This document shows positions 43,859-62,202 of a stretch of 64,000 nucleotides of DNA, piece by piece. Positions within the stretch are counted from its first letter, which is position 1, and every line of letters begins with the position of its first letter. The notes beneath the pieces were generated by a model. It had not been told where the DNA came from. It was given only the letters and a program-made list of their open reading frames with translations, and did no database searches. Source of the stretch: an uncultured Planctomycetia bacterium (GTDB lineage Bacteria; Omnitrophota; Gorgyraeia; Gorgyraeales; Gorgyraeaceae); NCBI GenBank assembly GCA_964415355.1, contig CAYPYS010000006.1, positions 752 to 64,751 of the forward strand, written 5' to 3'. A program made the translations under genes and the position numbers.

Positions 43859-43860
43859 TG

Positions 43861-43885
43861 GATTCCCGCTTTCGCGGGAATGACA
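43861..43885. repeat. REP2 copy
   Basis: gattcccgctttcgcgggaatgaca. Confidence 0.9.
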
Positions 43886-43896
43886 AAGGGGTCATC

Positions 43897-44859: not shown

Positions 44860-46637
44860 TATTGAAAAGCTACCTCATACCGTTTTTTCTGTCATTCGCG
44901 ATTTCAATCCTGCTCACCCCTTTTATAAAAAAAATAGCTGTTATTAAAGGCTATGTGGCACACCCTAACGGAGACCGCTGGCACAAGAAAGAGACCGCGC
45001 TTTTTGGCGGCATAGCTATTTTTATCTCGTTTATTATTCCTTATGTTATTTTTGTAAAACCTGACATCGAGGCCATTGGTATTCTTTTATGCGGAACTAT
45101 TATTTTTGCCTTAGGTGTTTTTGACGATATAAAGCGCATAAAGCCATACACGAAGCTAATAGGGCAGATCGTCATAGCGTCTTTACTGGTCAGTTTTGGC
45201 GTGAGCATAAAAATCATTCCTTACAGGATAGTGAGCATGCCGCTTACGATACTATGGATGGTGGCGATCGTAAATTCCTTTAATCTACTCGATAATATGG
45301 ACGGGCTTTCAACCGGCATTGCGGCGATCGTGACCGGTATCCTGTTTCTGTGTGCGGTTTTTAACGGAAATATTTTATTGGCATCAACGGCATTGATACT
45401 GGCAGGGAGCCTTTTAGGTTTTCTCAGGTATAATTTTAATCCCGCGAAGATCTTTATGGGAGATTGCGGCAGCATGTTTATAGGCTTTATGCTGGGCGCG
45501 ATAACTCTGCAGGGCAGCTGGAAAGAATCAACGCATTTGGTGATGATATTAGCTATCCCTGTTTTGGTATTGGCCGTGCCTATATTTGATACGACATTTG
45601 TAACGCTTGCGAGAGGGATAAGCGCGCGCAAGATCTTTCAGGGAGGCAAGGATCATATATCTCACAGGATGGTGGTTCTTGGGCTCTCAGAGAAGAATAC
45701 GGTGCTTGTGTTGTATTTCATAGGTTTATTTTTCGGAGGCATAAGCGTGCTTTCGATGTTTGTCGCGCCGATAATAACGCTAATGCTTGTCCTGGTTGCG
45801 GCTGTGAGCCTTATATATTTCGCGACATTTTTAGGCAAGGTCAAGGTCTATAGCGACGACAAGGCAAAGACATTGAAGAAGAAAAACGGCAACGTGGTGC
45901 TGGGCGGCGCGTTGATGCATAAAAGAAGGATGTTGGAAGTAGCCATTGACTTTATATTGATATGCGTGGCGTATGTCTCAGCGTATCTTTTGAGATTCGA
46001 AGGCGTATTGTCTCATACAAATCAGGAGCTTATCGTAAGGTCTCTTCCTGTTATATTGATAATAAAATACATCGTGTTCTTTAAGTTCGGGCTTTACAGG
46101 GGTATATGGAGATACGTGAGCGTGCCTGACCTTATAGACATATTTAAGGCAGTATTGACGGCATCTTTGTTTTCGGCAGTGGCTGTGCTTTTTATGTGGA
46201 GGTTTCATGGTTTTTCAAGGGCAGTGTTTATTATTGACTGGCTTTTACTTTTTATGCTGATTTCAGGCGCAAGAATACTTGAGAGGATCTACAAGGAGAT
46301 ATTTGACCAGGTAAGATTGGGCGATAAAAAGGTCTTGATATACGGGGCTGGCGATGCAGGAGAAATCGTTTTAAGAGAGATAAGGAACAATAAGGCATTG
46401 GGTTATAAGCCGGTCGGGTTCCTGGATGACGACGAAGAGAAATTAGGGAGGCGCATACATAACGTATCGGTCTTAGGCTCAAAGACTGACATGGCGCGTT
46501 TGATAAAACAGAAAGAAGTGGGGGAGATCATAATAGCAATACCAGACCTTCCAAAAGATATCTTTGAAGACACTGTGAGTATCTGCAGAAGCTTAGACGT
46601 AAGCTGCAAAAAGATGCACGACATCCTGCCAAAATAA
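44856..46637 (+). CDS. WecA/MraY-family polyprenyl-phosphate HexNAc-1-phosphate transferase fused to PglF/WbaP-type N-terminal (4 TM + CoA_binding_3-like) module
   Basis: NSFNLLDNMDGLSTG and other PNPT motifs in residues 1-330; C-terminal 260 aa with 4 TM and IYGAGDAGEIVLREI...PVGFLDDDEEKLG...VLG. Confidence 0.7.
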   Translation: MILKSYLIPFFLSFAISILLTPFIKKIAVIKGYVAHPNGDRWHKKETALFGGIAIFISFIIPYVIFVKPDIEAIGILLCGTIIFALGVFDDIKRIKPYTKLIGQIVIASLLVSFGVSIKIIPYRIVSMPLTILWMVAIVNSFNLLDNMDGLSTGIAAIVTGILFLCAVFNGNILLASTALILAGSLLGFLRYNFNPAKIFMGDCGSMFIGFMLGAITLQGSWKESTHLVMILAIPVLVLAVPIFDTTFVTLARGISARKIFQGGKDHISHRMVVLGLSEKNTVLVLYFIGLFFGGISVLSMFVAPIITLMLVLVAAVSLIYFATFLGKVKVYSDDKAKTLKKKNGNVVLGGALMHKRRMLEVAIDFILICVAYVSAYLLRFEGVLSHTNQELIVRSLPVILIIKYIVFFKFGLYRGIWRYVSVPDLIDIFKAVLTASLFSAVAVLFMWRFHGFSRAVFIIDWLLLFMLISGARILERIYKEIFDQVRLGDKKVLIYGAGDAGEIVLREIRNNKALGYKPVGFLDDDEEKLGRRIHNVSVLGSKTDMARLIKQKEVGEIIIAIPDLPKDIFEDTVSICRSLDVSCKKMHDILPK

Positions 46638-47701
46638 TGAAAATAGGGATAGATATTCGTCCGACACTCAAGAAGACAACAGGCATAGGCAAGTATACCC
46701 TTCATCTGATCAATGCCCTTGCAGAAGTAGATCCCGAAAATAGATATTTTCTCTACAGCAGAAAAAAGATATTGGATTTTAAAAGGCGGTTGCCAAGGTT
46801 GCCCGGCGCTAATTTTTCGCATCGCGTGGATCATTTTAAAAAAGGCGTGAGTGCAGCGATGCCGGAGATAGATATTTTCCACACCTCTTCTTATGACCTG
46901 GATAGGCCGAAAAAGGCAAAATATATCGTCACTGTCCATGATGTAATTATAAAGGCATATCCGCACGGCCATAGCGAGAAGACTATAAGAGAAACAGATG
47001 AAAAATTAAAAAAGATTTTAGGCGAGGCAGATGTGTTGGTGGCGGATTCCCATAGCACCAAAGCGGATCTGATGAGGTTTTATGATGTGGCCGAGTCAAG
47101 GGTAGCGGTAATCTATCCCGGAGTTAATTTTACGGAATACGGAATACGGGATGCGGAATGCGAAGACTATATTCTCTTTGTCGGGACGCTTGAGCCGCGA
47201 AAGAATGTAGATGGAGTCATAAAGGCGTATAGCTGGCTGAGAAAAAACTCAGGCGTGAGGCATAAGCTTTATATAGCGGGCATGAAGGGATGGATGTACG
47301 AAAATATTTTTAAGGAATACGAGAAGAGCGAATTTAAAAAAGATATTATCTTTAAAGGTTATGTAAGCGAACGAGAACTGAGCGCGTTGTACCAGAATGC
47401 GTCTTTATTCGTGTATCCGTCCTTTTATGAAGGTTTCGGGTTTCCTGTGATAGAGGCGTTTAGCTATGGAGTACCTGTTGTTACTTCGAAGACTTCTTCT
47501 TGCGGAGAGGTAGCAGGCGATAACGCATTATTGGTAGACCCTTCTAATATAAAGGAGATTAGAGAAGCAATGGCAAGACTCATTGCCGATAAAAACTTAA
47601 GGGAGCAGCTGGCGAGGCGCGGCCGAGAGAGAGCGAAGCAATTCACCTGGCGCAACACCGCCTCCGCCTTAAGTATACATTTCAACAACGTTAAAGTGTA
47701 A
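46637..47701 (+). CDS. glycosyltransferase GT4
   Basis: YPSFYEGFGFPVIEAFSYGVPVV; last 10 codons lie inside a 41-bp element. Confidence 0.7.
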   Translation: MKIGIDIRPTLKKTTGIGKYTLHLINALAEVDPENRYFLYSRKKILDFKRRLPRLPGANFSHRVDHFKKGVSAAMPEIDIFHTSSYDLDRPKKAKYIVTVHDVIIKAYPHGHSEKTIRETDEKLKKILGEADVLVADSHSTKADLMRFYDVAESRVAVIYPGVNFTEYGIRDAECEDYILFVGTLEPRKNVDGVIKAYSWLRKNSGVRHKLYIAGMKGWMYENIFKEYEKSEFKKDIIFKGYVSERELSALYQNASLFVYPSFYEGFGFPVIEAFSYGVPVVTSKTSSCGEVAGDNALLVDPSNIKEIREAMARLIADKNLREQLARRGRERAKQFTWRNTASALSIHFNNVKV

Positions 47702-47707
47702 AGTTAG
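47668..47707. repeat. 41-bp palindromic element, copy 11 (subfamily 2, tatac/ctaac variant)
   Basis: cttaagtatacatttcaacaacgttaaagtgtaaagttag. Confidence 0.85.
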
Positions 47708-47709
47708 GG

Positions 47710-47734
47710 GATTCCCGCTTTCGCGGGAATGACA
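47710..47734. repeat. REP2 copy
   Basis: gattcccgctttcgcgggaatgaca. Confidence 0.9.
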
Positions 47735-47743
47735 TTTTTCGCT

Positions 47744-48253
47744 ATGATACATATTTACACGGGTAATGGAAAAGGGAAGACTAGTGCGGCGTTTGGGCTG
47801 GCAATGAGGGCAAGCGGCCAGGGGCTCAAGGTCATTATATTTCAGTTTCTAAAGCCAAAGGAGATTGTGTCAGGCGAAGAGATCTCAGCAAAAAAGCTAA
47901 AGGGTTTAAAAGTGGTAAGATTTGACCAGGCGCACCCTATATTTAAAAATAAAAGCGAAGGCGTAAATAAGACTATAGAAGAAGATTTCGAAAAAACAAA
48001 AAAGGCTGCTTTAAGCGGTAAATACGATATGGTGGTGCTTGATGAGATCATCAATGTCGTGGACCAGGGTTTTATAAAAAAAGATAGTTTTATTAGTTTG
48101 CTAGGATCCGTTCCAGGGAAGTTAGAGTTAATCCTTACGGGCAGAGGTGATACTTTAGGGATAGAGGAATATGCGGATTATGTGACCGTAATGACAGATA
48201 AAAAACATCCTTTTAAAAAGACAACAGACGCACGGAAGGGTATAGAGTATTAA
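47744..48253 (+). CDS. cobO: cob(I)yrinic acid a,c-diamide adenosyltransferase (CobA/CobO/BtuR type)
   Basis: MIHIYTGNGKGKTSAAFGLAMRASG P-loop and overall 170-aa size. Confidence 0.8.
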   Translation: MIHIYTGNGKGKTSAAFGLAMRASGQGLKVIIFQFLKPKEIVSGEEISAKKLKGLKVVRFDQAHPIFKNKSEGVNKTIEEDFEKTKKAALSGKYDMVVLDEIINVVDQGFIKKDSFISLLGSVPGKLELILTGRGDTLGIEEYADYVTVMTDKKHPFKKTTDARKGIEY

Positions 48254-48263
48254 GGTTTTTTTG

Positions 48264-48303
48264 CTTAAGTATACTTTTAACATTGTTGAAATGTATACTT
48301 AAG
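48264..48303. repeat. 41-bp palindromic element, copy 12 (compensatory tatac variant)
   Basis: cttaagtatacttttaacattgttgaaatgtatacttaag. Confidence 0.85.
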
Positions 48304-48313
48304 GATTTTTTAA

Positions 48314-48342
48314 TTGACATAGCTGTAAAATAGTTGTATAAA
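48314..48342 (+). promoter_or_regulatory. sigma70-like promoter TTGACA-17-TATAAA
   Basis: read directly; located immediately upstream of the riboswitch. Confidence 0.45.
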
Positions 48343-48359
48343 ATAAGAAACCGAATATA

Positions 48360-48560
48360 TATTATATTGTTTAAGGGAAGCTGGTGTGAGTCCAGCGCAG
48401 CCCCGCTGCTGTAATAGGGTACGAAATCTGCAAAAAGTCATTGTCCTGGAGATTTAGGACGAGAAGGCGCAGAGATTAGAGCGATCCTTAAGTCAGAAGA
48501 CCTTGCAATGTGATCTTTAAAAAGCTACGCAGGGTAGCTTTGAGGGCCAAGTAAATCAGG
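48360..48560 (+). promoter_or_regulatory. cobalamin (AdoCbl) riboswitch
   Basis: GGGAAGCTGGTGTGAGTCCAGCGCAGCCCCGCTGCTGTAATAGGG core and AGTCATTGTCCTGGAGA B12-box-like segment; upstream of btuF. Confidence 0.7.
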
Positions 48561-48565
48561 GTGCA

Positions 48566-48600
48566 ACCCCGACTAAAAAAGTCGGGGTTTTTTATTTTGT
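48566..48600 (+). terminator. riboswitch expression-platform intrinsic terminator
   Basis: ccccgactaaaaaagtcgggg hairpin followed by ttttttatttt. Confidence 0.65.
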
Positions 48601-48606
48601 GATAAT

Positions 48607-49452
48607 ATGAGAAGATTTTTTATTATTAAATTTTTAATAATGTTTTTTCTAGCTTTTAGCAGCTATTCCTTTTCTTCGGAAGGCAAAAGGTTGAGGGTAG
48701 TCTCGCTTGCGCCGTCTACTACTGAGATATTGTTCGCGCTGAGGCTGGATGAGGAGATCGTAGGTGTAAGTTCATTCTGTAATTATCCCTTAAAAGCTCA
48801 GGAAAAAGATAAGATAGGGACTTTTAGCCACCCAAACATTGAAAAGATCCTGTCTCTAAAACCAGATATTGTGTTTTGTACAGGGCTTGAGCAGGCGCCT
48901 GTGATCAGTAAGTTAAAACAATTAAATCTGGAGGTCTTTGTCAGTGATCCGCAGAACATAGAAGAACTTTTTGATTCGATCAGGGATATGGCCGTGCTTA
49001 CAAGTCGCAGCAAAGAAGGCAAAGAGTTGATTAATAAAATGAAAAAAGGTGTAGAAGAAATAAGGTCAAAAACAGAGTCTATTCCAAAAGAAGACAGGGC
49101 GAGCGTTTTTATAGAATTTTGGAATGATCCCTTGATGAGTGCGGGTGATAATTCTTTTATCGGCGAATTGATCGCATTGGCTGGAGGCATAAATATTGCC
49201 CATGACGTTAAGAGACCTTATAGTTATTTTAGCCCCGAAGAAGTAATAAAGCGCAATCCCGATCGCATCATTCTGGCTTATATGGTCAATGAAGACGCGG
49301 CAAAGACAATAAGAAAACGCCTGGGCTGGAAAGATATATCAGCGGTTAAAAATAATCGCGTATATAGCGATGTTGATCCTGATATGCTTTTGAGGCCTGG
49401 ACCGCGTTTAGTAGAAGCCCTAGGGGAGTTATATAAAAGGCTATACCCGTAG
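48607..49452 (+). CDS. btuF: periplasmic cobalamin-binding protein of ABC transporter (BtuF/TroA-like)
   Basis: signal peptide; RVVSLAPSTTEILFAL...IVGVSSFCNYP. Confidence 0.75.
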   Translation: MRRFFIIKFLIMFFLAFSSYSFSSEGKRLRVVSLAPSTTEILFALRLDEEIVGVSSFCNYPLKAQEKDKIGTFSHPNIEKILSLKPDIVFCTGLEQAPVISKLKQLNLEVFVSDPQNIEELFDSIRDMAVLTSRSKEGKELINKMKKGVEEIRSKTESIPKEDRASVFIEFWNDPLMSAGDNSFIGELIALAGGINIAHDVKRPYSYFSPEEVIKRNPDRIILAYMVNEDAAKTIRKRLGWKDISAVKNNRVYSDVDPDMLLRPGPRLVEALGELYKRLYP

Positions 49453-49476
49453 ATTCCCGCTTTCGCGGGAATGACA
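49452..49476. repeat. REP2 copy
   Basis: gattcccgctttcgcgggaatgaca. Confidence 0.9.
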
Positions 49477-49480
49477 TGTG

Positions 49481-49519
49481 TTTAAGTTTACTTTTAACAT
49501 TGTTGAAAGTAAACTTAAG
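49481..49519. repeat. 41-bp palindromic element, copy 13 (short variant)
   Basis: tttaagtttacttttaacattgttgaaagtaaacttaag. Confidence 0.85.
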
Positions 49520-49529
49520 GGAGAAAATT

Positions 49530-50480
49530 TTGAAGAAGAAAATAGTATTTTTATTTTTAATATTGTTAGGCGTTGCGTTATTAGCGGTTAGCAAGGGGTC
49601 TGTTAGCTTGACCCTTAGGGAATTATTGCTTCAGGAAAATAGAAATATATTGTATCTGCGGTTTGCGCGTATTTTAATGGCGGCCCTGGCAGGCGCAGGC
49701 CTTGCAGTCTCAGGCATAGCGCTCCAGGCTATTCTGAGGAATTCGCTTGCCGAACCTTATATCCTGGGAACGTCTAGCGGCGCTGGGTTAGGGGCTATCT
49801 TGGCTATAATTATAGGTATAGGTGCTTCATTTTTACCTGTAATAGCATTTATAGGGGCAATATTAGCCATTGTACTAGTATATAACCTGGCAAAAGAAGG
49901 GAACCGCGTCGGTGTACAATCGCTTATTTTATCAGGGGTCATCGTGTCTATAGCGTTTTCTGCCATAATAGTCTTTATGGTTTCTCTGTCGAGCAACGAG
50001 GCCCTTCACGGGATGATGTGGTGGTTATGGGGGAATTTGCAAGTGTACGATGTTAAGCACTTATTTATAGTAGGCGCTATAGTGATAGCAGGCATTATCA
50101 TGATATATATATTGGCGCAAGATTTGAATGCGATAAGCATAGGAGAAGAAGAGGCAATGCATTTAGGTATAAACGCAGAGACAGTAAAAAAGATATTGTT
50201 CGTTATTACATCCATGATCACGGCGAGTCTTGTCTCCATATGCGGTATAATCGGTTTTGTGGGGCTCATTGTCCCTCACATGATGCGGTTTATAATAGGC
50301 CCTAACCATAAGGCGCTTATTCCTGCTACTTGCGTTGCAGCCGCGATATTTATGATAACATGCGATCTGATCTCCCGAATACTTTTGTCTCCGCTGGAGA
50401 TCCCTATAGGAGTCATTACAGCTGTTATAGGCGCGCCTGTGTTTATTATTTTATTGAAGCAGAAACAGAGGATCAGGTAG
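49530..50480 (+). CDS. btuC: cobalamin/siderophore ABC transporter permease (FecCD family)
   Basis: FecCD-like polytopic sequence; TTG start after aaggga RBS; the track's longer N-terminus is repeat-encoded. Confidence 0.7.
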   Translation: MKKKIVFLFLILLGVALLAVSKGSVSLTLRELLLQENRNILYLRFARILMAALAGAGLAVSGIALQAILRNSLAEPYILGTSSGAGLGAILAIIIGIGASFLPVIAFIGAILAIVLVYNLAKEGNRVGVQSLILSGVIVSIAFSAIIVFMVSLSSNEALHGMMWWLWGNLQVYDVKHLFIVGAIVIAGIIMIYILAQDLNAISIGEEEAMHLGINAETVKKILFVITSMITASLVSICGIIGFVGLIVPHMMRFIIGPNHKALIPATCVAAAIFMITCDLISRILLSPLEIPIGVITAVIGAPVFIILLKQKQRIR

Positions 50481-51278
50481 ATGCAGTCATTGGTCAGAGT
50501 GGATAGGCTTTCAGGAGGCTATTATAAAAAACTTGTAATAAAAGATGCCCTTTTTGAGATAAAAAAAGGGGATTTTTTGGGGATCATAGGGCCCAATGGT
50601 TCAGGTAAATCAACCCTTTTAAAGTTAATGACAAGGGTCTTGTCTCCGCAGTCAGGCAGTATTTTTCTTGAAGAAAAAGATATAAGAGGCATGGGGCTAA
50701 AAGAATTTTGCAGAAAGGTAGCGTTTGTGCCCCAGGATACGCTGATTAATTTTTCATTCAGCGTTGAAGAGATAGTGCTTATGGGCAGGATCCCGCATCT
50801 CAAGAGGATGCAGTTTGAGACAAAGAAGGACTTTTCAATAGCTTGCAATGCGCTTAAGCTGACAGATACCTTATATATAAAGGAGAAGGAGATAAGCCAG
50901 CTTAGCGCTGGCGAGCGCCAGAGAGTCATAATCGCAAAGGCGCTTGCGCAGGAGCCAATGCTTTTATTTCTGGACGAACCTACTTCCCATCTGGACATAG
51001 GCCACCAGGTGCAGATATTGGATCTATTGAAGAGGCTGAATAGAGAGAGCGGGCTTACAGTGGTTATGGTGATGCACGACCTGAATCTTGCGAGCGAATA
51101 TTGCAATAGGATAATGTTGTTTGATGAAGGCCGCATTTTTAAAGAGGGGACTCCTGAGCAAGTCCTGACCTATCAGAACATAGAAGCAGTATACAAGACA
51201 GTCGTGGTAGTGAAGAAGAGCCCTGTTTCTTCCAAGCCGTACGTAATACTGGTGTCGGGGAATAAGAGCATAGCCTAA
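50481..51278 (+). CDS. btuD: ABC transporter ATP-binding protein (BtuD/FecE-like)
   Basis: GIIGPNGSGKST Walker A; LSAGERQRV signature; LLFLDEPTSHLD Walker B. Confidence 0.8.
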   Translation: MQSLVRVDRLSGGYYKKLVIKDALFEIKKGDFLGIIGPNGSGKSTLLKLMTRVLSPQSGSIFLEEKDIRGMGLKEFCRKVAFVPQDTLINFSFSVEEIVLMGRIPHLKRMQFETKKDFSIACNALKLTDTLYIKEKEISQLSAGERQRVIIAKALAQEPMLLFLDEPTSHLDIGHQVQILDLLKRLNRESGLTVVMVMHDLNLASEYCNRIMLFDEGRIFKEGTPEQVLTYQNIEAVYKTVVVVKKSPVSSKPYVILVSGNKSIA

Positions 51279-51420
51279 GTTTACGCTTTAACATTGTTGA
51301 AGTAAAACCAGAGACGTTTACCGAGCCAATCGGGAACCTGTCTCATGTTTAAGGACAGGTTCCCGATTGGCTCGGTAAACGTCTCTAAAATACTTTAACA
51401 TTGTTGAAATGTAAACTTAG
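51274..51420. repeat. composite element: two 41-bp-element cores flanking a 33-bp-arm perfect inverted repeat (13-nt loop)
   Basis: ctaagtttacgctttaacattgttgaagtaaaac | agagacgtttaccgagccaatcgggaacctgtc-tcatgtttaag-gacaggttcccgattggctcggtaaacgtctct | aaaatactttaacattgttgaaatgtaaacttag. Confidence 0.85.
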
Positions 51421-51430
51421 ACAAGGTGAG

Positions 51431-51979
51431 ATGGCGACGAGATTGATATTGATCAGACATGGTGAGACAGATTATAGCACAGAGAAGAGATATTGCGGGC
51501 TTACGGATGTATGTTTGAACAAGAGGGGCATTGAACAGGCAGAAGGACTTTGTCAAAAACTTGGCGAAGAAGACGTTGATAAAGTCTATAGCAGCGATTT
51601 GAGGCGTGCATCAGAATTTGCGAAGATAGTATTTAAGAATAAAGAAATAGAACCCGCGCCTGAATTCAGGGAAATAAATTTTGGGATTTTTGAAGGATTG
51701 ACATATGAAGAGATCATGGATAGATATGCCGAGATATATAAAAAGTGGTTAAACGAGCCATACGAGAGCGTTATCCCTGAAGGTGATAGCTTGGCCGATT
51801 TTAAAAATAGGGTACAAAAGGCATTAAAAAAAATTATCCAGCTTAATAGAGGCAAGACATTGGCAATAGTTACTCATGCCGGGCCTATAAAGATAATAAT
51901 GAGAAATGTCACAAAATCCAAAAACATATGGGATATAAACCCTGAATTAGGAGGCTTCTGGAGATGCGCGTATGAGTAA
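51431..51979 (+). CDS. cobC: histidine phosphatase family protein (alpha-ribazole phosphatase CobC-like)
   Basis: RLILIRHGETDY RHG motif; operon context with cobU/T/S. Confidence 0.7.
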   Translation: MATRLILIRHGETDYSTEKRYCGLTDVCLNKRGIEQAEGLCQKLGEEDVDKVYSSDLRRASEFAKIVFKNKEIEPAPEFREINFGIFEGLTYEEIMDRYAEIYKKWLNEPYESVIPEGDSLADFKNRVQKALKKIIQLNRGKTLAIVTHAGPIKIIMRNVTKSKNIWDINPELGGFWRCAYE

Positions 51980-52499
51980 AATCACATTTATTTTAGGCGG
52001 GGCAAGGAGCGGTAAAAGTAAGTTTGCGACAGAAGAGGCTAAGGGGATCGGGAAAAAGGTTGCATTCATCGCAACCTGTAAGCCAATGGACAAAGAAATG
52101 GAAGAGCGTATCTCTATTCATAAAAAGGCAAGGCCAGCTGAATGGCAGACTTTTGAAGAGCCGCGGGATATACCTTTATTATTGAAAAAAATGAGCCGGG
52201 GATTCGAGGTTATTATAGTAGACTGCCTGACTCTCCTCGTGTCCAATCTGTTATTAGACGGATTTAAAGAAAAAGATATCGAGGAGAATATTAACGAGAT
52301 ACTTTTTGTATTAAATAAGCTAAAGGCTCATGTGATAATCGTATCCAATGAAGTAGGATTAGGTATAGTCCCGGATAATAAACTTGCAAGAGAATTCAGG
52401 GATATTGCCGGCAGGGTGAATCAGCTAGTAGCAAAGGAAGCCAATAAAGTGTTTTTTATGACATCCGGCCTGGCTTTAAAGATAAAAGGAGAGAAGTAA
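51972..52499 (+). CDS. cobU: adenosylcobinamide kinase / adenosylcobinamide-phosphate guanylyltransferase
   Basis: [17 protein letters not shown]-loop; 175 aa. Confidence 0.85.
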
Positions 52500-53554
52500 T
52501 GAATAAAACAAAGAAAGCCATTGCAAAGATAGGAGAAGTCGATAAGGGCCTTATGGATAAGGCACAGGAGAGGCTCGATAATCTCACTAAGCCTCAGGGC
52601 AGCCTGGGTCGATTAGAGGAACTTGCAAAACTTATCGTCGGTATTACTGGAAAAGAAAATCCTATGCTTAAAAACAAGGTCATTTTTACTCTTGCGGGTG
52701 ACCATGGCGTGACAGAAGAAGGCGTGAGTGTTTTTCCAAAAGAGGTGACTCCTCAGATGGTCTATAATTTTTTAAGGGGCGGGGCGGGTATAAATGTATT
52801 GGCAAATCATGTTGGCGCGAAAGTCAGAGTAGTGGATGTCGGAGTGGATAGCGGCCTGGAGTTACATCCGGAATTAATTGTTAAAAAAATAGACTATGGC
52901 ACAAAGAATATGACAAAAGGTCCTGCAATGACAAAGGAACAAGCGACAAGGTCAATAGAGGCAGGGATAGAGGTGTTCGAAGAGGAATTCAATAAAGGTA
53001 TAGATATAGTCGGCACTGGTGATATGGGAATTGGAAATACTACGCCGAGTAGTGCCATAACAGCTGTTTTTACTGGTAAACCAGTCGAAGAGGTTACGGG
53101 AAGAGGCACTGGTGTCGATAACAGCGGTTTAAAAAACAAAATAGATATTATTAAAAGAGCTCTTAAAGTAAATAAGCCGGATCCAAAAGACGCAATAGAT
53201 GTGCTGTCAAAGGTAGGTGGTTTTGAAATAGGTGGGCTTGCCGGAATAATACTTGCAACTGCTTCGCGAAGGATCCCTGTTGTAATAGATGGTTTTATCT
53301 CAGGCGCCGCAGCGCTTATAGCGTATCATCTAGAGCCAAAGGTTAAGGATTACATGATCGCAGGGCATTGCTCAGTGGAGAGCGGACACAAGATTATCTT
53401 GCAGCATATAGGACTTGAACCCGTATTAGACCTAAATCTGAGGCTCGGTGAGGGGACAGGGGCTGCGCTCGCAATGAGCATAATAGACGCAGGCCTTAAG
53501 ATCATGACACAGATGGCGACATTTAAGGGCGCCGGAGTTTCGGAAAAATGCTAA
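52499..53554 (+). CDS. cobT: nicotinate-nucleotide--dimethylbenzimidazole phosphoribosyltransferase
   Basis: [14 protein letters not shown] and overall CobT similarity. Confidence 0.9.
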
Positions 53555-53559
53555 CGGCG

Positions 53560-53598
53560 CTAACTTTACACTTCAACAACGTTAAAGTGTAAAGTTAG
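53560..53598. repeat. 41-bp palindromic element, copy 15 (subfamily 2, ctaac termini)
   Basis: ctaactttacacttcaacaacgttaaagtgtaaagttag. Confidence 0.85.
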
Positions 53599-53606
53599 AG
53601 ATCAAT

Positions 53607-54356
53607 ATGAAAAACTTTTTATTGGCCTTACAATTTTTGACGATTATTCCTGTTAAAGTCAGGGGCGTTGAGGAGAAAGACATAGGGCGCTCGGTCGTGT
53701 ATTTTCCTCTGGTCGGGTTATTTTTGGGCCTTATTTTAACAGGCGCTAATAATCTTTTTTTGTTTCTGGGCTTCGGAGAAGTTTTTATAAATATTACCCT
53801 GGTTGTCTTGCTGATTGTCCTTACAGGCGGGATCCATATGGATGGTCTGGCTGATACTGCAGATGCCTTCCTGAGCAGAAAGAATAAAGATGAGATGCTG
53901 AGGATCATGCGTGATTCACGGATAGGCGCAATGGGCGTCTTGGCTCTTATTAGCGTTGTGCTTTTGAAAATAGTTTTTCTCTCGTGCGTAAATGTCCCTT
54001 TAAAACCCGCTTCACTTATTATTATGTGTGTTCTGAGCAGGTGGTGCTTGGTCTTTTCGCTATTTTTATTTCCGTATGCCAGGCAAGAAGGGAAAGCAAA
54101 ACTATACACAGAAAGCGCTAATTTTAGAGCACTTATTTTTTCTACGATAACTGTTTTATGCTGTGCATTTCTGTTTTTAAAAATACACGGGTTGCTGGTC
54201 TTATTGATAATAGCGATCTTAACTTACGCAATGGGACGTTTCATCGTAGGTAAGGTCGGTGGTATCACAGGAGATACGCTTGGCGCAGCAAATGAGATCA
54301 TAGAGGTGTCGGTGCTTTTTATTCTATGTTTATTGGGGAGGCTGATCTATGTATAA
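53607..54356 (+). CDS. cobS: adenosylcobinamide-GDP ribazoletransferase (cobalamin synthase)
   Basis: polytopic; MDGLADTADAF motif. Confidence 0.85.
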   Translation: MKNFLLALQFLTIIPVKVRGVEEKDIGRSVVYFPLVGLFLGLILTGANNLFLFLGFGEVFINITLVVLLIVLTGGIHMDGLADTADAFLSRKNKDEMLRIMRDSRIGAMGVLALISVVLLKIVFLSCVNVPLKPASLIIMCVLSRWCLVFSLFLFPYARQEGKAKLYTESANFRALIFSTITVLCCAFLFLKIHGLLVLLIIAILTYAMGRFIVGKVGGITGDTLGAANEIIEVSVLFILCLLGRLIYV

Positions 54357-55056
54357 TTCAGAGATAATATCATCCTGGAGCGGAGGAAAGGATAGCTGTC
54401 TTGCTTGTTATAAGGCAATCCAGGCAGGCTATAAAGTAAAACATCTTTTGAATTTTATCTCCAGGGAATCGGGTCGCGGGTGCTTTCATGGTATAGAAAA
54501 AAAACTCCTTAGGCTACAGGCAGAAGCAATAGGCATACCACTGACTCAAAAAGAAACAACAGCAGATATGAAAGAATACGAAAAAGAATTCAAGGAAGCT
54601 ATCTCAGAATTTAGAGATAAGGGCATAAATAAAATGGTCTTCGGCGACATCTATCTGGACGAGCATAAAGATTGGGTGGAGCGGGTCTGTGGAGATATAG
54701 GCATCGAGCCGCTCGAACCTTTATGGAATAAATCGCCCTTATCTCTTGTAGAGGAATTCGTGGACCTTGGCTTTAAATCGATTGTTGTCAGCTGCCACGC
54801 GGATAAATTCGAAAAGGATTTTGTGGGCAGAGTGATCGACAGGACGTTGATAGATGAATTAAAGGAAAAGAATATTTGCCCGTGCGGCGAAAACGGAGAA
54901 TTTCATACGTTTGTCGTTGACGGCCCAATGTTTAAAAAAAGAATAGATATAACAAAAAGTGAACCGGTTTTTAAAAAAGGTTTTTGGGAATATTATTTTT
55001 TGGACATCAAAGATTATGAGGTTAGAGAGAAGGGCCAGGTAGTCAAAACGAAATGA
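54349..55056 (+). CDS. PP-loop ATPase of the MJ0570/Dph6 (ATP_bind_4) family
   Basis: SSWSGGKDSCLACYKA PP-loop; GDI..DEHKDWVE; CGENGEFHTFVVDGP. Confidence 0.7.
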   Translation: MYNSEIISSWSGGKDSCLACYKAIQAGYKVKHLLNFISRESGRGCFHGIEKKLLRLQAEAIGIPLTQKETTADMKEYEKEFKEAISEFRDKGINKMVFGDIYLDEHKDWVERVCGDIGIEPLEPLWNKSPLSLVEEFVDLGFKSIVVSCHADKFEKDFVGRVIDRTLIDELKEKNICPCGENGEFHTFVVDGPMFKKRIDITKSEPVFKKGFWEYYFLDIKDYEVREKGQVVKTK

Positions 55057-56918
55057 GAATATATAGCGTAGCATTAAGCCTGATTTTCTTGTGTTTGCAT
55101 TGCTTGGTTTGCAATTTTGAAGTCGAGGCAAAAGAAGAGAATTCAGATTATTATAATATTGATTTAGAGAAGATTATCATTACCCCATCCAAGATAGAGC
55201 AGGGATATAAATACTCTACTCAAAACATAAGTATTGTCGGTAAGGAAGATATCGAAGCTAGTGCCGTTACTGAGGTAACAGAGATCCTGGACCTGTTGCC
55301 TTCAGTAGATATATTAGAGTACGGTTCTGCTGGTTCCACGAAGACTGTCCACACGAGAGGCGCTTCTTCTTCCCAGGTCCTGACCTTGATAGACGGAAGA
55401 CCTGTCAATACGCCCAGAGACGGAGTCACAGATTTTAATCAGATCCCTATTTCAAATATTGAAAGGATAGAGGTGCTGCGTGGGCCTGCCAGTAGTATGT
55501 ATGGGGCGAATGCCGTGGGAGGCGTTATAAATATAATAACAAAGAGCGGCGAAAAAAAGGCGCGCACTGAGATGCTGAATAAATTTGGCTCTTTCAATAC
55601 AAAGTTTTCCTCTTTTTCGCACGGCCGCAAGATAGATGAAATAGATTATTTTATATCCCATGATTACCTGGCTTCTCACGGCCACAGAGATAATGCTGAT
55701 TATTTAAGCAATAATGTGAATTGGAAATTCGGCTATGATCTGAATCCTGAGAATCATATGGGTCTTTCCGCAGGATATTATAATTCAGAGGCAGGTACGC
55801 CAGGGTTGCTCTCCAATACAGATCTTGATGACAGGCAGGAGAATTTTAAGAAATACATAGATTTTACTTATAACGGAAAGATGTTTGAAGGACAGGATAT
55901 TGTTTTGAAATTATTTCAGAATAGTGACAGGCTTGAATTTATAGAGACATTTGACCCTCTGGATAAAGATACTCACCATACCAAGATCTACGGATTGGAT
56001 ACCCAGATATCGCAGACTTTTTTCGATATATTTCGTACGGCATTAGGCTGCAGCTATCAAGAGCACAATCTAAATAGTTCAACCAGCAGCAAGCATACAT
56101 ATAATGCAAGGGCATTTAATTTTGAGACAGAGGTCGATATATTAGACAAAAGCACCTTGAAATTTGGCGCTCGCTGGGATGACTATTCAAATTTTGGAGA
56201 TAAGATAAGTCCGAGCGCAAGTTTTAATTTTTGGTTATTTGATAAAATAAAGGCCCATGCCTTGGCCGCCAAGTCTTTTAGGGCGCCTACCTTTAATGAC
56301 CTCTATTGGCCCAGGGAAGACTGGGGGATCTGGGGAGGAGTAGAGGGTAATTCCAGTCTTGGCCCTGAAAAGGCGGAGTCTTATGAGATTGGAATAAGCG
56401 GATATTTTTTAGAAAAGATAAAGACAGACATCACTTTGTTTAGAACAAACTTTGAGGATCTGATAGAATGGACCGTTGATGATGCCTGGTGGTGGCGGCC
56501 TCAAAATACGAGTTCTGCTGTAACAAAAGGCCTTGAGCTCGAGACAGAAGTCGTTCTAAAGGATAATCTCAAAGCCAATTTTAATTATACTTATCTGGAA
56601 TCCAAAAACAAGAACACGAGAAAATGGTTGATATATCGTCCGCGTCATTTATATAAGCTAAGATTGACATTTTCACCTTTTCCTAAATATGAACTTGGGG
56701 CGAACGCTATATTCAAGACGAAGAGGTTTGCTAATGCTGCGAATACGAGCATCCTCGATCATTATTTTATAGTAAATTCGAACCTGTCTTATAAAATAAA
56801 TGACAGCGTCAGTGTCTTATTAGAGGCTAAAAACATATTTGATAAATATTATGAGGAGGAAAGGGATTATTCAATGCCGGGCCGCGCCTTCTACACCGGC
56901 ATTAAATTGGGCTTCTAA
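55053..56918 (+). CDS. btuB: TonB-dependent outer-membrane receptor (vitamin B12/BtuB-like by context)
   Basis: signal peptide; plug VEVLRGPASSMYGANAVGGVINIITK; beta-barrel; C-terminal Phe. Confidence 0.8.
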   Translation: MRIYSVALSLIFLCLHCLVCNFEVEAKEENSDYYNIDLEKIIITPSKIEQGYKYSTQNISIVGKEDIEASAVTEVTEILDLLPSVDILEYGSAGSTKTVHTRGASSSQVLTLIDGRPVNTPRDGVTDFNQIPISNIERIEVLRGPASSMYGANAVGGVINIITKSGEKKARTEMLNKFGSFNTKFSSFSHGRKIDEIDYFISHDYLASHGHRDNADYLSNNVNWKFGYDLNPENHMGLSAGYYNSEAGTPGLLSNTDLDDRQENFKKYIDFTYNGKMFEGQDIVLKLFQNSDRLEFIETFDPLDKDTHHTKIYGLDTQISQTFFDIFRTALGCSYQEHNLNSSTSSKHTYNARAFNFETEVDILDKSTLKFGARWDDYSNFGDKISPSASFNFWLFDKIKAHALAAKSFRAPTFNDLYWPREDWGIWGGVEGNSSLGPEKAESYEIGISGYFLEKIKTDITLFRTNFEDLIEWTVDDAWWWRPQNTSSAVTKGLELETEVVLKDNLKANFNYTYLESKNKNTRKWLIYRPRHLYKLRLTFSPFPKYELGANAIFKTKRFANAANTSILDHYFIVNSNLSYKINDSVSVLLEAKNIFDKYYEEERDYSMPGRAFYTGIKLGF

Positions 56919-56953
56919 CTTTACATTTCAACAACGTTAAAGTGTAAAGTTAG
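56915..56953. repeat. 41-bp palindromic element, copy 16 (subfamily 2)
   Basis: ctaactttacatttcaacaacgttaaagtgtaaagttag; supplies TAA stop of btuB. Confidence 0.85.
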
Positions 56954-57001
56954 GCGCGATTGATTTGACAAAGCAAAGGGCAATTGTTATTATATAGACA
57001 A

Positions 57002-57661
57002 ATGTATGGCGGAAAGAGTTTTAAAATCGCGGTTTTGGTTTCTGTTTTAATCCATTCGGCGCTATTTTTTTCTATTCCTAATCTATCGTTTTTCCCCAGC
57101 AGAAGGTCTTTGGAGAATCTGAGAATCACGTATTATAAGATCAAACAGCAGCCAAAGTCAAAGACTATAGCCAGGAAAAAAGCAAAGCCAGTAGCGCAAA
57201 AACTTCCAGAGATAAAAAAAGATGAGATACTCAGGCCTCCGAGACCTGCCAGGAAAGAGGCAAAAAAGGTCAAGCGCGTGACTAGGCACGTCAAGCCTGT
57301 TGAAAAAAAGGAAGAGAAGAAGTTTGAGACAGTCATCAAAGAAGAAAAAGACGACGCCAGGAAAGCGGCATACATAAGTTATTATCGGGCAGTCAGAGAG
57401 AAAATAAAGCGATACGCTGACAGGAATTATCTAAGGAATCGCAGGCTGGGCGAAGGAGAGGTATTTTTATCTTTTGTCGTGGCTTCCAGCGGAGAGCTTC
57501 TGCATGTTAAGGTGGCTAGCGAAAGGTCTGTGGATGACCCTTTGCTAAGAAATATTGGTATAAATAGCATCAGAGATGCGAGCCCATTTTCTTCCTTCCC
57601 TAAAGGTATGAGTCAATACCAGATTACCTTTAATGTCATAATCGCATTCGAGCATAGGTAG
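57002..57661 (+). CDS. tonB: energy transducer TonB family protein
   Basis: N-terminal TM anchor, Lys/Pro-rich spacer, C-terminal TonB_C-like domain. Confidence 0.6.
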   Translation: MYGGKSFKIAVLVSVLIHSALFFSIPNLSFFPSRRSLENLRITYYKIKQQPKSKTIARKKAKPVAQKLPEIKKDEILRPPRPARKEAKKVKRVTRHVKPVEKKEEKKFETVIKEEKDDARKAAYISYYRAVREKIKRYADRNYLRNRRLGEGEVFLSFVVASSGELLHVKVASERSVDDPLLRNIGINSIRDASPFSSFPKGMSQYQITFNVIIAFEHR

Positions 57662-57670
57662 GCGCGCTTG

Positions 57671-57695
57671 GATTCCCGCTTGCGCGGGAATGACA
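57671..57695. repeat. REP2 copy (one substitution)
   Basis: gattcccgcttgcgcgggaatgaca. Confidence 0.85.
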
Positions 57696-57712
57696 AAAAG
57701 CGCAAAAAAAGC

Positions 57713-57741
57713 TTGACAAAATATCAGGTTTTGGTAAGATA
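57713..57741 (+). promoter_or_regulatory. sigma70-like promoter (TTGACA -35; TAAGAT -10) for groESL
   Basis: read directly. Confidence 0.45.
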
Positions 57742-57752
57742 GTAAAACATTT

Positions 57753-57780
57753 CTGGCACTCCTCTTGTGAGAGTGCTGAT
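57753..57780 (+). promoter_or_regulatory. CIRCE-like HrcA operator
   Basis: TGGCACTC-N9-GAGTGCTGA matches TTAGCACTC-N9-GAGTGCTAA consensus at 15/18 positions. Confidence 0.7.
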
Positions 57781-57817
57781 AACAAAAACCAATAACTATA
57801 ATCAAGGAGGTGTTGGT

Positions 57818-58105
57818 ATGGGAATACAGCCTTTAGGTGACAGGGTTCTAGTAAAAAGGCTAGAGGCAGAAGAGAAGACCAAAGGCGGCATTGTTCTGCC
57901 TGATACTGCAAAGGAGAAGCCGCAAAAAGGAGAGGTAGCAGCTGTTGGCAAGGGTAAGGTGCTTGAAAGCGGCAAGGTCGAGGCATTAGAGGTAAAGAAG
58001 GGTGACAAGATTCTTTTTGGTAAATACGCTGGCAATGAGATCACTTATAAGGATGAAGAGTATCTTATTATGCGAGAGGAAGATATTTTAGCGATATTAA
58101 AATAA
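57818..58105 (+). CDS. groES: co-chaperonin GroES
   Basis: [36 protein letters not shown]; aaggagg RBS. Confidence 0.95.
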
Positions 58106-59773
<1,668 letters not shown>

Positions 59774-59976: not shown

Positions 59977-60915
59977 ATGCCAAGTCTACATGAGATCCCC
60001 CAGAAATTAATAGACAATATTTCCAAGGTAATAGTAGGGAAGCTCGAGGTCATACAGCTTGTCGTGGCAGGCTTGCTTAGCAACGGTCATGTTCTTTTAG
60101 AAGATGTGCCAGGTCTGGGCAAGACAATGCTTTCGCGCTCCCTTGCAAAATCCATAGCAGCAAATTTCAAAAGATTACAATTTACTCCTGATCTTTTGCC
60201 GTCTGATGTGACAGGCGTTTCTATATATAATCAAAAGAGTCAGGAGTTTGAGTTCAGGAAAGGACCTATATTCGCGAACATAGTGCTTGCTGATGAAATA
60301 AACCGCACGACGCCCAGGACGCAGTCAGCTCTTCTGGAGGCCATGCAGGAGTTCAAAGTGACTGTTGATGGCACGTTGAGAGAATTGCCTCGGCCATTTT
60401 TTGTCATAGCCACCCAGAATCCCATAGAATTTCACGGCACTTATCCTCTCCCTGAATCTCAAGTGGATAGATTTTTGATGCAGCTCGATGTAGGATATCC
60501 GTCTGACAAGGAAGAGACAGATATCCTGGCCAGGAATCTTAAGGAGTCTCCCCTGGAGAGATTGCAGAGCGTGGTTAAGATAGAAGAGATCGTCGAATTG
60601 CAGAATGTGGTGAGCGTGGTCCATGTCGAGAATAAAATATACGATTATATAGTCAAGATAGTTTCGACAACGAGAAATCTACCAGGCGATATTAAACTGG
60701 GCGCAAGTCCTCGCGCGTCTCTCGCGCTAATGCGCTCCGCAAGAGCCCTGGCGTTTCTTGACAAGAGAGATTATGTGATACCCGATGATGTAAAGAGATT
60801 GGCTTATCCTGTCTTAAGGCACAGACTTATATTGCAGCCGAGGTCCATAGTGCGCGGCCTTAATACCAGGGATATCGTGAATCATATATTGAAAAAAGTA
60901 ACCGCTCCGGTTTGA
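59977..60915 (+). CDS. moxR: MoxR-family AAA+ ATPase
   Basis: EDVPGLGKTMLSRSLA Walker A; LADEINRTTPRTQSALLEAM. Confidence 0.9.
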   Translation: MPSLHEIPQKLIDNISKVIVGKLEVIQLVVAGLLSNGHVLLEDVPGLGKTMLSRSLAKSIAANFKRLQFTPDLLPSDVTGVSIYNQKSQEFEFRKGPIFANIVLADEINRTTPRTQSALLEAMQEFKVTVDGTLRELPRPFFVIATQNPIEFHGTYPLPESQVDRFLMQLDVGYPSDKEETDILARNLKESPLERLQSVVKIEEIVELQNVVSVVHVENKIYDYIVKIVSTTRNLPGDIKLGASPRASLALMRSARALAFLDKRDYVIPDDVKRLAYPVLRHRLILQPRSIVRGLNTRDIVNHILKKVTAPV

Positions 60916-60919
60916 GCAT

Positions 60920-62149
60920 ATGTTTACCCCAAAAAGCATATTTCTGCTCATAGTAACCATCGCCCTCCTTGCCATTTCATGGAATACAGACATAACAATG
61001 GTGTACATTTTTTTTACAGTGACGCTTGTTATGTTTGTGCTTTCTTTTGTACACCTCCAGATCACTAAGCCTGATATAGTTATTTCTCGTGAATTATATG
61101 ACACTGCATATGAAGATGATATGCTGAGTGTAAATCTAGATGTGCATAATAAACGTGGTTTCGCTGTTCATTTTTTTGAGATCTGCGATTTTTTTCCAGG
61201 TGCTCCTTTGGATAAAAAAGAGGCGTCTTTATTTGTTTTAAAAATGGAGTCGAATGAGCGCAAAAAAATAAACTATATAACGACCTGTTACAAAAGAGGG
61301 CTCTGGAGGATCGGCCCTATATCAGTTATTTCACAGGACGCGCTCGGGTTTTTTAAGACAAAAAAGCTATTAAAGATTTATTCGGATATTCTGGTTTATC
61401 CGAGATTGTTCAGGGTATTTGCTTTTCCGCCGCTCGCGAGCGGCTCTGCGTCCTGGGTAGGCGTTGAGACATCTAAGATAAGCGGCGACAGTCATGAATT
61501 TTTTGGTATAAGGGAATACCAGCGCGGAGACATGATCAGTCGTATTCATTGGCCTTCGTCGGCAAAGCACAACAAGCTTATCGTGAAACAGTTTGAACGA
61601 AATGCTGTCCAGGAAGTGACGATAGCGTTTGATTTAAAGAAAGGCCATGACATTGGAACCGGCAGAGAGACGACGTTGGAATATGCAGTCAAGATAGCAG
61701 GGTCTATTGCGTCGTATCTTTTAAACGAAGGCGCGCTCGTGCAGATGGTCGGGTATGGCAAGGAGTCGTCGATCCTGCCTTTAGGAAAAGGTGAGTCGCA
61801 CAAGTATAAGATCCTGGAATATCTGGCAAAGATTCAGGCCGACGGCGATTTTAAACTCAGCCAGGCTCTGGATGAAGCGAGTTTTGTTGTTCCTCATCGC
61901 TCAACATTGGTGACTATTATACTGGATAATGATATAGATAGCCTGACCAGCCTTATTCAGTTTAAGGTCAAAGGTATAAAACTCATAATTATCGTGCTGG
62001 CTACTTCGACATTCGGTCCTATTGAAGAAAAGGATTTTATGGATGCGGAACGGGCCAGGAAATTTGACGAGGCCTTAGCCGGACTCGAGGCGTATGTATA
62101 CAAGATCTCCAAAGGAGAGGTCCTGGAGAAAAAGTTTGAGACACTGTAA
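60920..62149 (+). CDS. DUF58 (vWA-like, MoxR-associated) protein
   Basis: N-terminal TM helices; REYQRGDMISRIHWPSSAK DUF58 signature. Confidence 0.8.
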   Translation: MFTPKSIFLLIVTIALLAISWNTDITMVYIFFTVTLVMFVLSFVHLQITKPDIVISRELYDTAYEDDMLSVNLDVHNKRGFAVHFFEICDFFPGAPLDKKEASLFVLKMESNERKKINYITTCYKRGLWRIGPISVISQDALGFFKTKKLLKIYSDILVYPRLFRVFAFPPLASGSASWVGVETSKISGDSHEFFGIREYQRGDMISRIHWPSSAKHNKLIVKQFERNAVQEVTIAFDLKKGHDIGTGRETTLEYAVKIAGSIASYLLNEGALVQMVGYGKESSILPLGKGESHKYKILEYLAKIQADGDFKLSQALDEASFVVPHRSTLVTIILDNDIDSLTSLIQFKVKGIKLIIIVLATSTFGPIEEKDFMDAERARKFDEALAGLEAYVYKISKGEVLEKKFETL

Positions 62150-62152
62150 GTT

Positions 62153-62190
62153 CTAACTTTACATTTCAACAACGTTAAAGTGTAAAGTTA
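62153..62190. repeat. 41-bp palindromic element, copy 18 (subfamily 2)
   Basis: ctaactttacatttcaacaacgttaaagtgtaaagtta. Confidence 0.85.
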
Positions 62191-62202
62191 CGGATGTGAG
62201 AC

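Follow-up and report, generated by a model that had tools for sequence, protein, structure and literature searches.

We analyzed a 64,000-nucleotide (nt) stretch of DNA from an uncultured bacterium of the Omnitrophota (contig CAYPYS010000006.1; hereafter the window, to which positions refer unless a locus is named) and focused on the open reading frame (ORF) at 54349-55056 of the + strand, which starts with ATG and encodes a PP-loop ATP pyrophosphatase of 235 amino acids (aa). This PP-loop gene is an integral, translationally coupled member of a corrinoid-salvage operon headed by a cobalamin riboswitch. Its product very probably belongs to the DUF71-B12 subgroup of the family PF01902 and plays a role in corrinoid salvage. 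The operon and the gene in front of it comprise the following features.

47729..48253 (+): cobA/btuR-type ATP:corrinoid adenosyltransferase (PF02572, E 2.3e-49; NCBIfam cobA 128 bits, below the cutoff of 167.75)
48350..48524 (+): cobalamin riboswitch aptamer at the operon head (RF00174, 88.7 bits vs a gathering cutoff of 31.5, E 1.4e-20, full-length model match)
48565..48599 (+): terminator-like hairpin (48565-48589; 10 bp, 6 of them G-C) with a T-run to 48599, between aptamer and btuF
48607..49452 (+): btuF-like periplasmic corrinoid-binding protein (PF01497, E 1.3e-38)
49476..50480 (+): btuC-like ATP-binding cassette (ABC) permease (PF01032 FecCD, E 1.4e-83)
50481..51278 (+): btuD-like ABC ATPase (PF00005, E 8.9e-32)
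51401..51979 (+): cobC-type alpha-ribazole-phosphate/cobamide-phosphate phosphatase (PF00300 His_Phos_1, E 8.3e-49; role assigned from the operon context)
51972..52499 (+): cobU, cobinamide kinase/cobinamide-phosphate guanylyltransferase (PF02283, E 6.5e-60)
52499..53554 (+): cobT, lower-ligand phosphoribosyltransferase (PF02277, E 4.9e-143)
53607..54356 (+): cobS, cobamide-5'-phosphate synthase (PF02654, E 1.6e-55)
54349..55056 (+): PP-loop ATP pyrophosphatase, DUF71-B12 subgroup (PF01902/COG2102, E 2.9e-60)
55053..56918 (+): BtuB-like TonB-dependent outer-membrane receptor (PF07715 Plug and PF00593; best NCBIfam match TonB-B12, 254.9 bits, below the cutoff of 599.7)
56984..57661 (+): TonB-like energy transducer of 225 aa at the end of the locus (N-terminal membrane helix, Lys/Pro-rich linker and C-terminal domain; TonB_C E 0.0037, 18.1 bits, below cutoff)

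An earlier note on this DNA had placed a PF01902 PP-loop gene between cobS and the receptor gene, with overlapping start and stop codons, and this arrangement was confirmed. The ATG of the PP-loop gene (54349) lies 8 nt within cobS, whose TAA stop occupies 54354-54356, and a Shine-Dalgarno-like GGGGAGG is found 5' of it. At the other end, the TGA stop (55054-55056) shares the four nucleotides ATGA with the receptor ATG at 55053. The receptor start differs among public calls of the identical locus, which use either this ATG (621 aa) or a TTG at 55104 (604 aa), 51 nt downstream, which would leave a gap of 47 nt to the PP-loop gene. Since the ATG at 55053 retains a complete signal peptide, we take the 4-nt overlap to be probable, with some doubt left. 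The identical locus with the same gene order is present in at least four independent metagenome assemblies and is therefore not an assembly artefact.

The riboswitch aptamer and the hairpin at the operon head are additions to the earlier note. This hairpin is the top-scoring terminator-like site within 47500-58300 and, as read from its position, is probably the expression platform of the riboswitch, acting by transcription attenuation. The cobA gene directly precedes the riboswitch and itself follows a terminator-like hairpin (47711-47730); unlike the remaining salvage genes, it thus appears to be outside riboswitch control. No cbiB, cobD, cbiP or CbpB gene was found in the 64-kb window.

At the 3' end of the locus, the 225-aa ORF gave no Pfam or NCBIfam match at default thresholds and is read as TonB-like from its sequence; public gene calls start it at 57002, and other Omnitrophota loci likewise keep a TonB-like gene 3' of the receptor. 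The ORF in the window may also have its own promoter, as suggested by a promoter-like site (TTGACA-17-TATTAT with TG) at 56965-56993. Further downstream, groES/groEL start an unrelated unit.

Family assignment of the PP-loop protein

The protein matches PF01902 (old name ATP_bind_4, now Diphthami_syn_2) with 203.9 bits against a cutoff of 23.2, its residues 7-222 aligning with profile positions 4-216 of 219. The PP-loop SGGKDS, which binds the alpha- and beta-phosphates of ATP, comprises residues 11-16 (54379..54396, +) within SWSGGKDS (residues 9-16). A second motif, ENGEFH at residues 181-186 (54889..54906, +), is the signature of the DUF71-B12 subgroup. In the HMMER alignment, GENGEFHTF of the window protein faces GEGGEFETF of PF0828 and PH1257, and His186 stands at the position of the predicted catalytic Glu188 of Dph6 (PF0828). 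The NCBIfam model Dph6_archaeal (TIGR03679) gives 154.3 bits, which is below its equivalog cutoff of 197.3.

AlphaFold2, run with 66 diverse homologs, gave a model with a pLDDT of 96.3 and a pTM of 0.92. Using Foldseek, PH1257 (2D13) and PF0828 (3RJZ/3RK0/3RK1) were the sole close solved structures (E 2e-20 to 4e-16, TMq 0.77-0.83, TMt 0.86-0.90, identity 27-31%), while the next-best PP-loop structures had TM values <0.46. A sequence search of the PDB returned the same two proteins alone.

An exhaustive HMMER search yielded 4,910 relatives at E <= 1e-3. The motif ExGE[FY]H occurs in 120/120 close homologs and in almost every full-length protein among the best 150 diverse representatives. When 66 diverse members are aligned, no variation is seen in the PP-loop or at G99, E181, G183, E184 and H186. 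The residues W10, Y77, E78, D100, H106, W109, C114, C179 and H186 set the clade apart from Dph6. The closest named homologs (65-92% identity) stem from Candidatus Omnitrophota metagenome-assembled genomes, which carry the same operon. In a neighbor-joining tree, calculated without support values and without the reference sequences of 2012 (see below), the protein falls among bacterial copies in B12 context, far from two Dph6 outgroups. As judged from these sequence features, the window protein is a DUF71-B12 member and a sister of Dph6, not Dph6 itself. The PF01902 family named in the earlier note is thus correct, but a diphthamide enzyme is not what the gene encodes, given ENGEFH in place of EGGE/DxE.

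Within the clade, the domain is also found fused to GNAT acetyltransferases (in both orders), a VanY-type peptidase, DUF4116 repeats and a Cys-rich CWC domain. Fused examples include P0128 (2455 aa), P0181 (523 aa), P0223, P0231 and P0260; one DUF4116 fusion is a 2455-aa protein with kinase-like and DIT1_PvcA-like regions. Such fusions of the His-motif PF01902 domain indicate that parts of the clade have functions outside B12 metabolism. For the function of the PP-loop gene in the window, the fusion partners are uninformative.

Prior description of the subgroup

The split of DUF71/COG2102 into Dph6 and DUF71-B12 was introduced by de Crécy-Lagard, Forouhar, Brochier-Armanet, Tong and Hunt (Biol Direct 2012, PMC3541065). 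They defined DUF71-B12, which is bacterial but also includes the second copies of some archaea, by its gene context and by ENGE(F/Y)H replacing the EGGE/DxE of Dph6 (PMC3541065). Among the 102 bacterial and extra archaeal DUF71 genes, 75 adjoin genes of the B12 transporter BtuCDF and 18 adjoin cbiB (PMC3541065), so that the placement called unexpected in the earlier note had been on record since 2012. The window protein is accordingly a new instance of DUF71-B12, whose B12 association and diagnostic motif were already published. The 2012 authors tentatively proposed a CbiZ-like role in the salvage of pseudo-B12 and called for experiments (PMC3541065). A table published by the same group in 2016 still lists the subgroup as "function unknown, B12 salvage", and the other later papers found do no more than cite the 2012 study.

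The window protein shares with DUF71-B12 proteins (for example PF0295 of Pyrococcus furiosus) the motifs SGGKDS and ENGE(F/Y)H, the single domain of ~220-235 aa, the clustering of its gene with BtuFCD-type transporters and cob salvage genes, and a bacterial host without diphthamide. Nothing essential separates them; the window operon has nucleotide-loop genes and an outer-membrane receptor and lacks cbiB. One further candidate for the family, BT_1949/BtuX of the B. thetaiotaomicron btuB2 operon, was rejected, as strain VPI-5482 has no DUF71 homolog according to Table S1 of the 2012 study (PMC3541065). BtuX is described in the literature merely as an uncharacterized non-lipoprotein.

Gene neighborhood across phyla

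We surveyed 80 loci from species-representative genomes, fetched with the 66-member alignment, in which the ORFs within ±6 kb of the PP-loop gene were clustered and annotated with Pfam and NCBIfam. The loci span Omnitrophota, Planctomycetota, Atribacterota, Lentisphaerota, Chloroflexota, Nitrospirota, Acidobacteriota, Bacillota, Bacteroidota, Desulfobacterota-type lineages, Pseudomonadota, Spirochaetota and several archaeal groups. A cob, btuF or btuC gene lies within 6 kb in 45/80 loci when counted by BLAST clusters and in 48/80 when counted by hidden Markov models. At least two different corrinoid genes are found in 33/80 loci, and positive loci occur in 18 of the 35 lineage labels. As an internal control, corrinoid genes thin out about 6-fold away from the PP-loop gene: their density is 2.79 per 10 kb at distances of 0-2 kb and 0.49 per 10 kb at 8-10 kb.

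The recurrent partners are btuF, btuC, btuD, TonB-dependent receptors, cobU, cobT, cobS, cobC, cobA, cbiB, cobD and cbiP. The PP-loop gene often adjoins cobT, cobU, cobS or cobC, and precedes an archaeal-type cobT and cobY in three loci; cbiB and cobD lie beside it in 8/80 loci and cbiP in 5/80. Neither bza nor bluB was among the recurrent neighbors in these loci. The association extends over many phyla with differing gene orders, which argues for selection on co-expression.

A cobalamin riboswitch was detected upstream on the same strand in 12 of 22 scanned loci, a set mostly picked for cob genes that also includes a locus (L069) with just a receptor beside the PP-loop gene. Together with ten loci lacking obvious B12 genes, the total is 13/32. 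The recurrence of the cob-gene association, on which the earlier note had let its reading depend, is thus borne out both by gene content (48/80) and by riboswitch placement.

Several clusters contain two cobalamin riboswitches (L041:10417-10550, L070:7270-7440, L034:4691-4831 and 6392-6531, L048, L049). The second one often lies directly before a TonB-dependent receptor, which suggests separate control of outer-membrane uptake; the window has one riboswitch. In two Omnitrophota relatives, a gene of the AP_endonuc_2 superfamily (PF01261), to which CbiR belongs, was observed 3' of the tonB-like gene (L001:13758-14660, L002:13697-14623), followed by housekeeping genes. CbiR is a cobamide-remodelling enzyme (PMC7733943). 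The link of this AP_endonuc_2 gene to corrinoid loci may be coincidental; in the window, groES/groEL occupy that position.

Asparagine-synthase-like and CbpA/CbpB neighbors

In 8/80 loci (L056 (6593-8671), L036, L046, L048, L049, L076, L083 and L051), the gene directly upstream of the PP-loop gene encodes a protein of ~354 aa whose only Pfam domain is that of asparagine synthase (PF00733); it lacks a glutaminase domain and has a zinc-ribbon-like C-terminal tail (CxxC...CxxC). In L056, a cobalamin riboswitch stands directly before this pair alone. From its domain content, this protein is predicted to be a second uncharacterized ATP pyrophosphatase of the amidating type in the B12 regulon.

Some close relatives carry a radical S-adenosylmethionine (SAM)/SPASM gene between cobS and the PP-loop gene, which matches TIGR04163 CbpB (513.9 bits vs a cutoff of 375). 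It is preceded by a basic peptide of 35-50 aa with the motif (V/I)AYRxKCxxxxxGLSHY, matching TIGR04164 CbpA. CbpA-CbpB sites were observed at L002:8484-10004, L007:~6120-7697, L044:7451-9022, L046:1271-2855 and L083:4439-5995, and also in L084-L119; their position varies within the cob/btu operons of many uncultivated bacteria. A search of the literature for CbpB/TIGR04163 returned only unrelated acronyms. CbpA/CbpB looks like a RiPP-like system (ribosomally synthesized and post-translationally modified peptide) tied to B12 metabolism, and the conserved Cys, His and Tyr of CbpA could bind cobalt or corrin.

Seen from the CbpB side, CbpA was detected in 36 of 80 CbpB-related metagenome loci. 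Of these 36, cob/btu genes are present in 27 and the PP-loop gene in 10; when only CbpA-positive loci of at least 8 kb are counted, the PP-loop gene is present in 7/17. Where both occur in these loci, cobT and cobS often lie in between. Conversely, CbpB occurs in 6/80 PP-loop loci. No CbpA motif was found in the six frames of the window. CbpA/CbpB and the PP-loop gene behave as independent accessories of corrinoid operons.

A candidate reaction in corrinoid salvage

Taken jointly, the data likely describe a soluble DUF71-B12 PP-loop enzyme, integral to the operon, which may adenylate a carboxylate of a corrinoid or of a salvage intermediate and so lead to its amidation. The sequence shows the intact ATP-pyrophosphatase motif, the Dph6-like fold, the changed pocket residues and the placement together with corrinoid uptake and nucleotide-loop genes. 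Dph6, NadE, QueC and asparagine synthetase adenylate a carboxylate with release of pyrophosphate, whereupon an amine displaces AMP. By analogy, amidation of a corrinoid side-chain carboxylate is the reaction we would tentatively favor, and we regard it as quite possible rather than probable. The earlier note had suggested an ATP-dependent amidation or adenylation in corrinoid salvage or remodelling; the link to salvage is strongly supported, whereas the amidation or adenylation step would be a chemically natural, preferred guess.

In this scheme, corrinoids would be imported by the BtuB-like receptor, the TonB-like protein and BtuFCD, and the nucleotide loop would be rebuilt by CobU, CobT, CobS and CobC, with the gene for CobA lying alongside. 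At high corrinoid levels, the riboswitch would terminate transcription before btuF, and the PP-loop enzyme would probably be made only in B12 scarcity. It would bind ATP via SGGKDS and adenylate a carboxylate of the imported corrinoid or salvage intermediate, releasing pyrophosphate, with the invariant His186 in place of the catalytic Glu of Dph6. Free ammonia would then displace AMP to yield an amide. As no glutaminase partner is encoded, free ammonia is the simplest amine. Hints of amidating chemistry come from the stand-alone asparagine-synthase-domain partner in 8/80 loci, from the riboswitch before this pair in L056 and from the five loci in which cbiP adjoins; in some lineages, the PP-loop enzyme may work with the neighboring asparagine-synthase-like enzyme. 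It is conceivable, though somewhat doubtful, that the operon contains a hitherto undescribed salvage step, in which an ammonia-dependent, adenylate-forming amidation repairs deamidated cobamides or cobinamides or completes partly amidated precursors.

Compared with known enzymes, the window protein shares with Dph6 (EC 6.3.1.14; PF0828, PH1257, yeast YLR143W) the fold, the PP-loop, the ATP-contacting H47 and T187, the C-terminal G-E-x-G-E frame and probably the first half-reaction, carboxylate adenylation. It differs by the low identity (27-31%), by His at the position of Glu188, by the pocket residues changed in the clade, by B12 regulation of the gene and by a host that, as a general bacterial rule, lacks the diphthamide pathway. 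NadE, QueC, the C-terminal domain of asparagine synthetase B and LarE share the SGGxDS PP-loop and provide the mechanistic template of a substrate-O-AMP displaced by ammonia, amine or sulfur, but the similarity is at superfamily level only (TM <0.46) and their substrate-binding domains are different. CbiA/CobB and CbiP/CobQ would achieve the same outcome, the ATP-dependent conversion of a corrin carboxylate to an amide, if the preferred mechanism is right. They do so, however, with an unrelated, MinD/dethiobiotin-synthetase-like P-loop fold and a GATase_3 glutaminase, via a phosphoryl intermediate (ADP + Pi) and with glutamine.

Several observations weigh against a carboxylate-activating enzyme of corrinoid salvage. 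About 40% of the loci lack nearby corrinoid genes, mainly those of methanogens and anaerobic methanotrophic archaea (ANME), of one Dehalococcoidia subclade and of a mixed Bacillota/Anaerolineales/Nitrospirota group. Among the ten scanned loci without obvious B12 genes, a riboswitch was found upstream in one and directly downstream in another, and none in the other eight. No residues were found that separate copies in B12 context from the others, and the clade signature is about equally kept in both; the substrate need therefore not be corrinoid-specific, and the clade probably shares one chemistry. Fusions with corrinoid domains were not found within the clade, nor did the literature to 2026 yield a biochemical or genetic characterization of DUF71-B12 members. 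The scheme also calls for natural corrinoid carboxylates in need of re-amidation, which would be plausible from B12 chemistry. Finally, the 2012 authors favored another reaction (PMC3541065).

Alternative explanations

That other reaction, a replacement of CbiZ in which adenosyl-pseudo-B12 or cobinamide is processed to cobyric acid, or another route of pseudo-B12 remodelling, appears unlikely to us. In its favor, DUF71-B12 and CbiZ are reported to be strictly anti-correlated among bacteria, and a genome that encodes CbiB almost always has either of the two (PMC3541065). In line with this, Pfam scans of 204 unlabelled same-strand neighbors revealed no CbiZ family among the 25 most frequent families, which does not imply absence, and cbiB and cobD adjoin in the eight loci mentioned above. 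Amide hydrolysis is, however, ATP-free and the reverse of PP-loop chemistry, an objection raised by a referee at the time (PMC3541065), while the invariant PP-loop indicates that ATP use is retained. Moreover, CbiZ, an adenosylcobinamide/pseudo-B12 amidohydrolase, has no sequence or fold kinship with the window protein; the likeness proposed in 2012 is one of mutually exclusive bacterial distribution and of a shared association with cbiB and corrinoid transport. The route to cobyric acid also needs CbiB and CobD, which are absent from the window, although cbiB may lie elsewhere in the genome, and transport and nucleotide-loop genes, rather than cbiB, are the commonest partners of the gene. Quite unlikely as well is a substrate in the lower ligand or nucleotide loop, where the carbonyl oxygen of a base or riboside would be adenylated and then aminated in the manner of GMP synthase, tailoring the cobamide that is assembled. 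The PP-loop enzymes GuaA, TilS and ThiI also activate ring carbonyls, and the frequent contact with cobT, cobU, cobS and cobC, including the archaeal-type cobT-cobY loci, would fit such a role, as would the connection drawn in 2012 to pseudo-B12, a cobamide with adenine as its lower ligand (PMC3541065). Yet the nearest characterized relative, Dph6, activates a carboxylate, and the lower-ligand genes bza and bluB are not recurrent neighbors.

A housekeeping or unrelated enzyme that is encoded in cob operons but does not itself act on corrinoids, for instance one needed only in B12 scarcity, is very unlikely. The loci devoid of corrinoid genes, with their equally kept active-site residues, are what one would expect of it, and cobalamin riboswitches also control B12-independent isozymes. 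But the gene shares codon overlaps with its neighbors cobS and btuB instead of forming a separate riboswitch-controlled unit, and the association holds across many phyla in differing gene orders. We consider it highly improbable that the enzyme acts on a peptide or protein, such as CbpA matured by the radical-SAM protein CbpB, possibly into a corrinoid- or cobalt-binding RiPP. This idea draws on the order CbpA-CbpB-PP-loop with overlapping codons (L002, L007), on the order asparagine-synthase-like-CbpA-CbpB-PP-loop (L046, L083), on the amidation of a protein side chain by Dph6 and on the GNAT and VanY fusions in the clade. Since CbpB and the PP-loop gene co-occur in a minority of loci and behave independently, and with neither the CbpA motif nor CbpB in the window, a peptide substrate was rejected as a general explanation. 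A true diphthine-ammonia ligase (Dph6), finally, can be dismissed for practical purposes: the Pfam family, the fold and the "diphthine--ammonia ligase" label of homologs at NCBI and JGI speak for it, but the motif replacement with Glu to His at the catalytic position, the score below the equivalog cutoff and the location inside a B12 operon speak against it, and bacteria have neither diphthamide nor its carrier elongation factor 2 (EF-2) (PMC3541065).

Consequences for annotation and corrinoid salvage

The Omnitrophota homologs P0025, P0039, P0041, P0052, P0071 and P0072 are named "diphthine--ammonia ligase" at NCBI, and all carry ENGE[FY]H; JGI labels some other homologs in the same way. With ENGEFH and a score below the NCBIfam Dph6 cutoff, this database name is probably wrong, and we probably face a systematic over-annotation across the whole bacterial clade. 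Thousands of bacterial PF01902 proteins are thereby labelled for a reaction without a bacterial substrate, and "DUF71-B12/corrinoid-salvage-associated PP-loop ATPase" would be the better name. Fourteen years after it was flagged, the family is still among the few widespread B12-regulon genes without an assigned reaction. Corrinoid salvage and remodelling shape microbial cross-feeding, so that a new salvage reaction would matter; if the proposed amidation is true, salvaging bacteria would proof-read the corrin periphery, beyond import and re-tailing. The present analysis contributes one more instance, a broader survey, evidence from riboswitches and a nucleotide-loop-only operon in which the gene occurs without cbiB, but the window does not make the question of the reaction easier to answer than before.

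Further features of the window

Upstream of cobA, the ORFs at 42136-47701 encode glycosyltransferases, sugar epimerases and undecaprenyl-phosphate sugar transferases, and 18692-20602 encodes a full-length homolog of asparagine synthase. Both are probably part of a larger polysaccharide cluster. Downstream of the operon, a MoxR-type AAA ATPase, a DUF58 protein and a TgpA_N-like protein are encoded at 59977-63852. All sizeable ORFs of the window are on the + strand, and the GC skew is strongly positive throughout, with values of 0.10-0.37 in each 2-kb bin.

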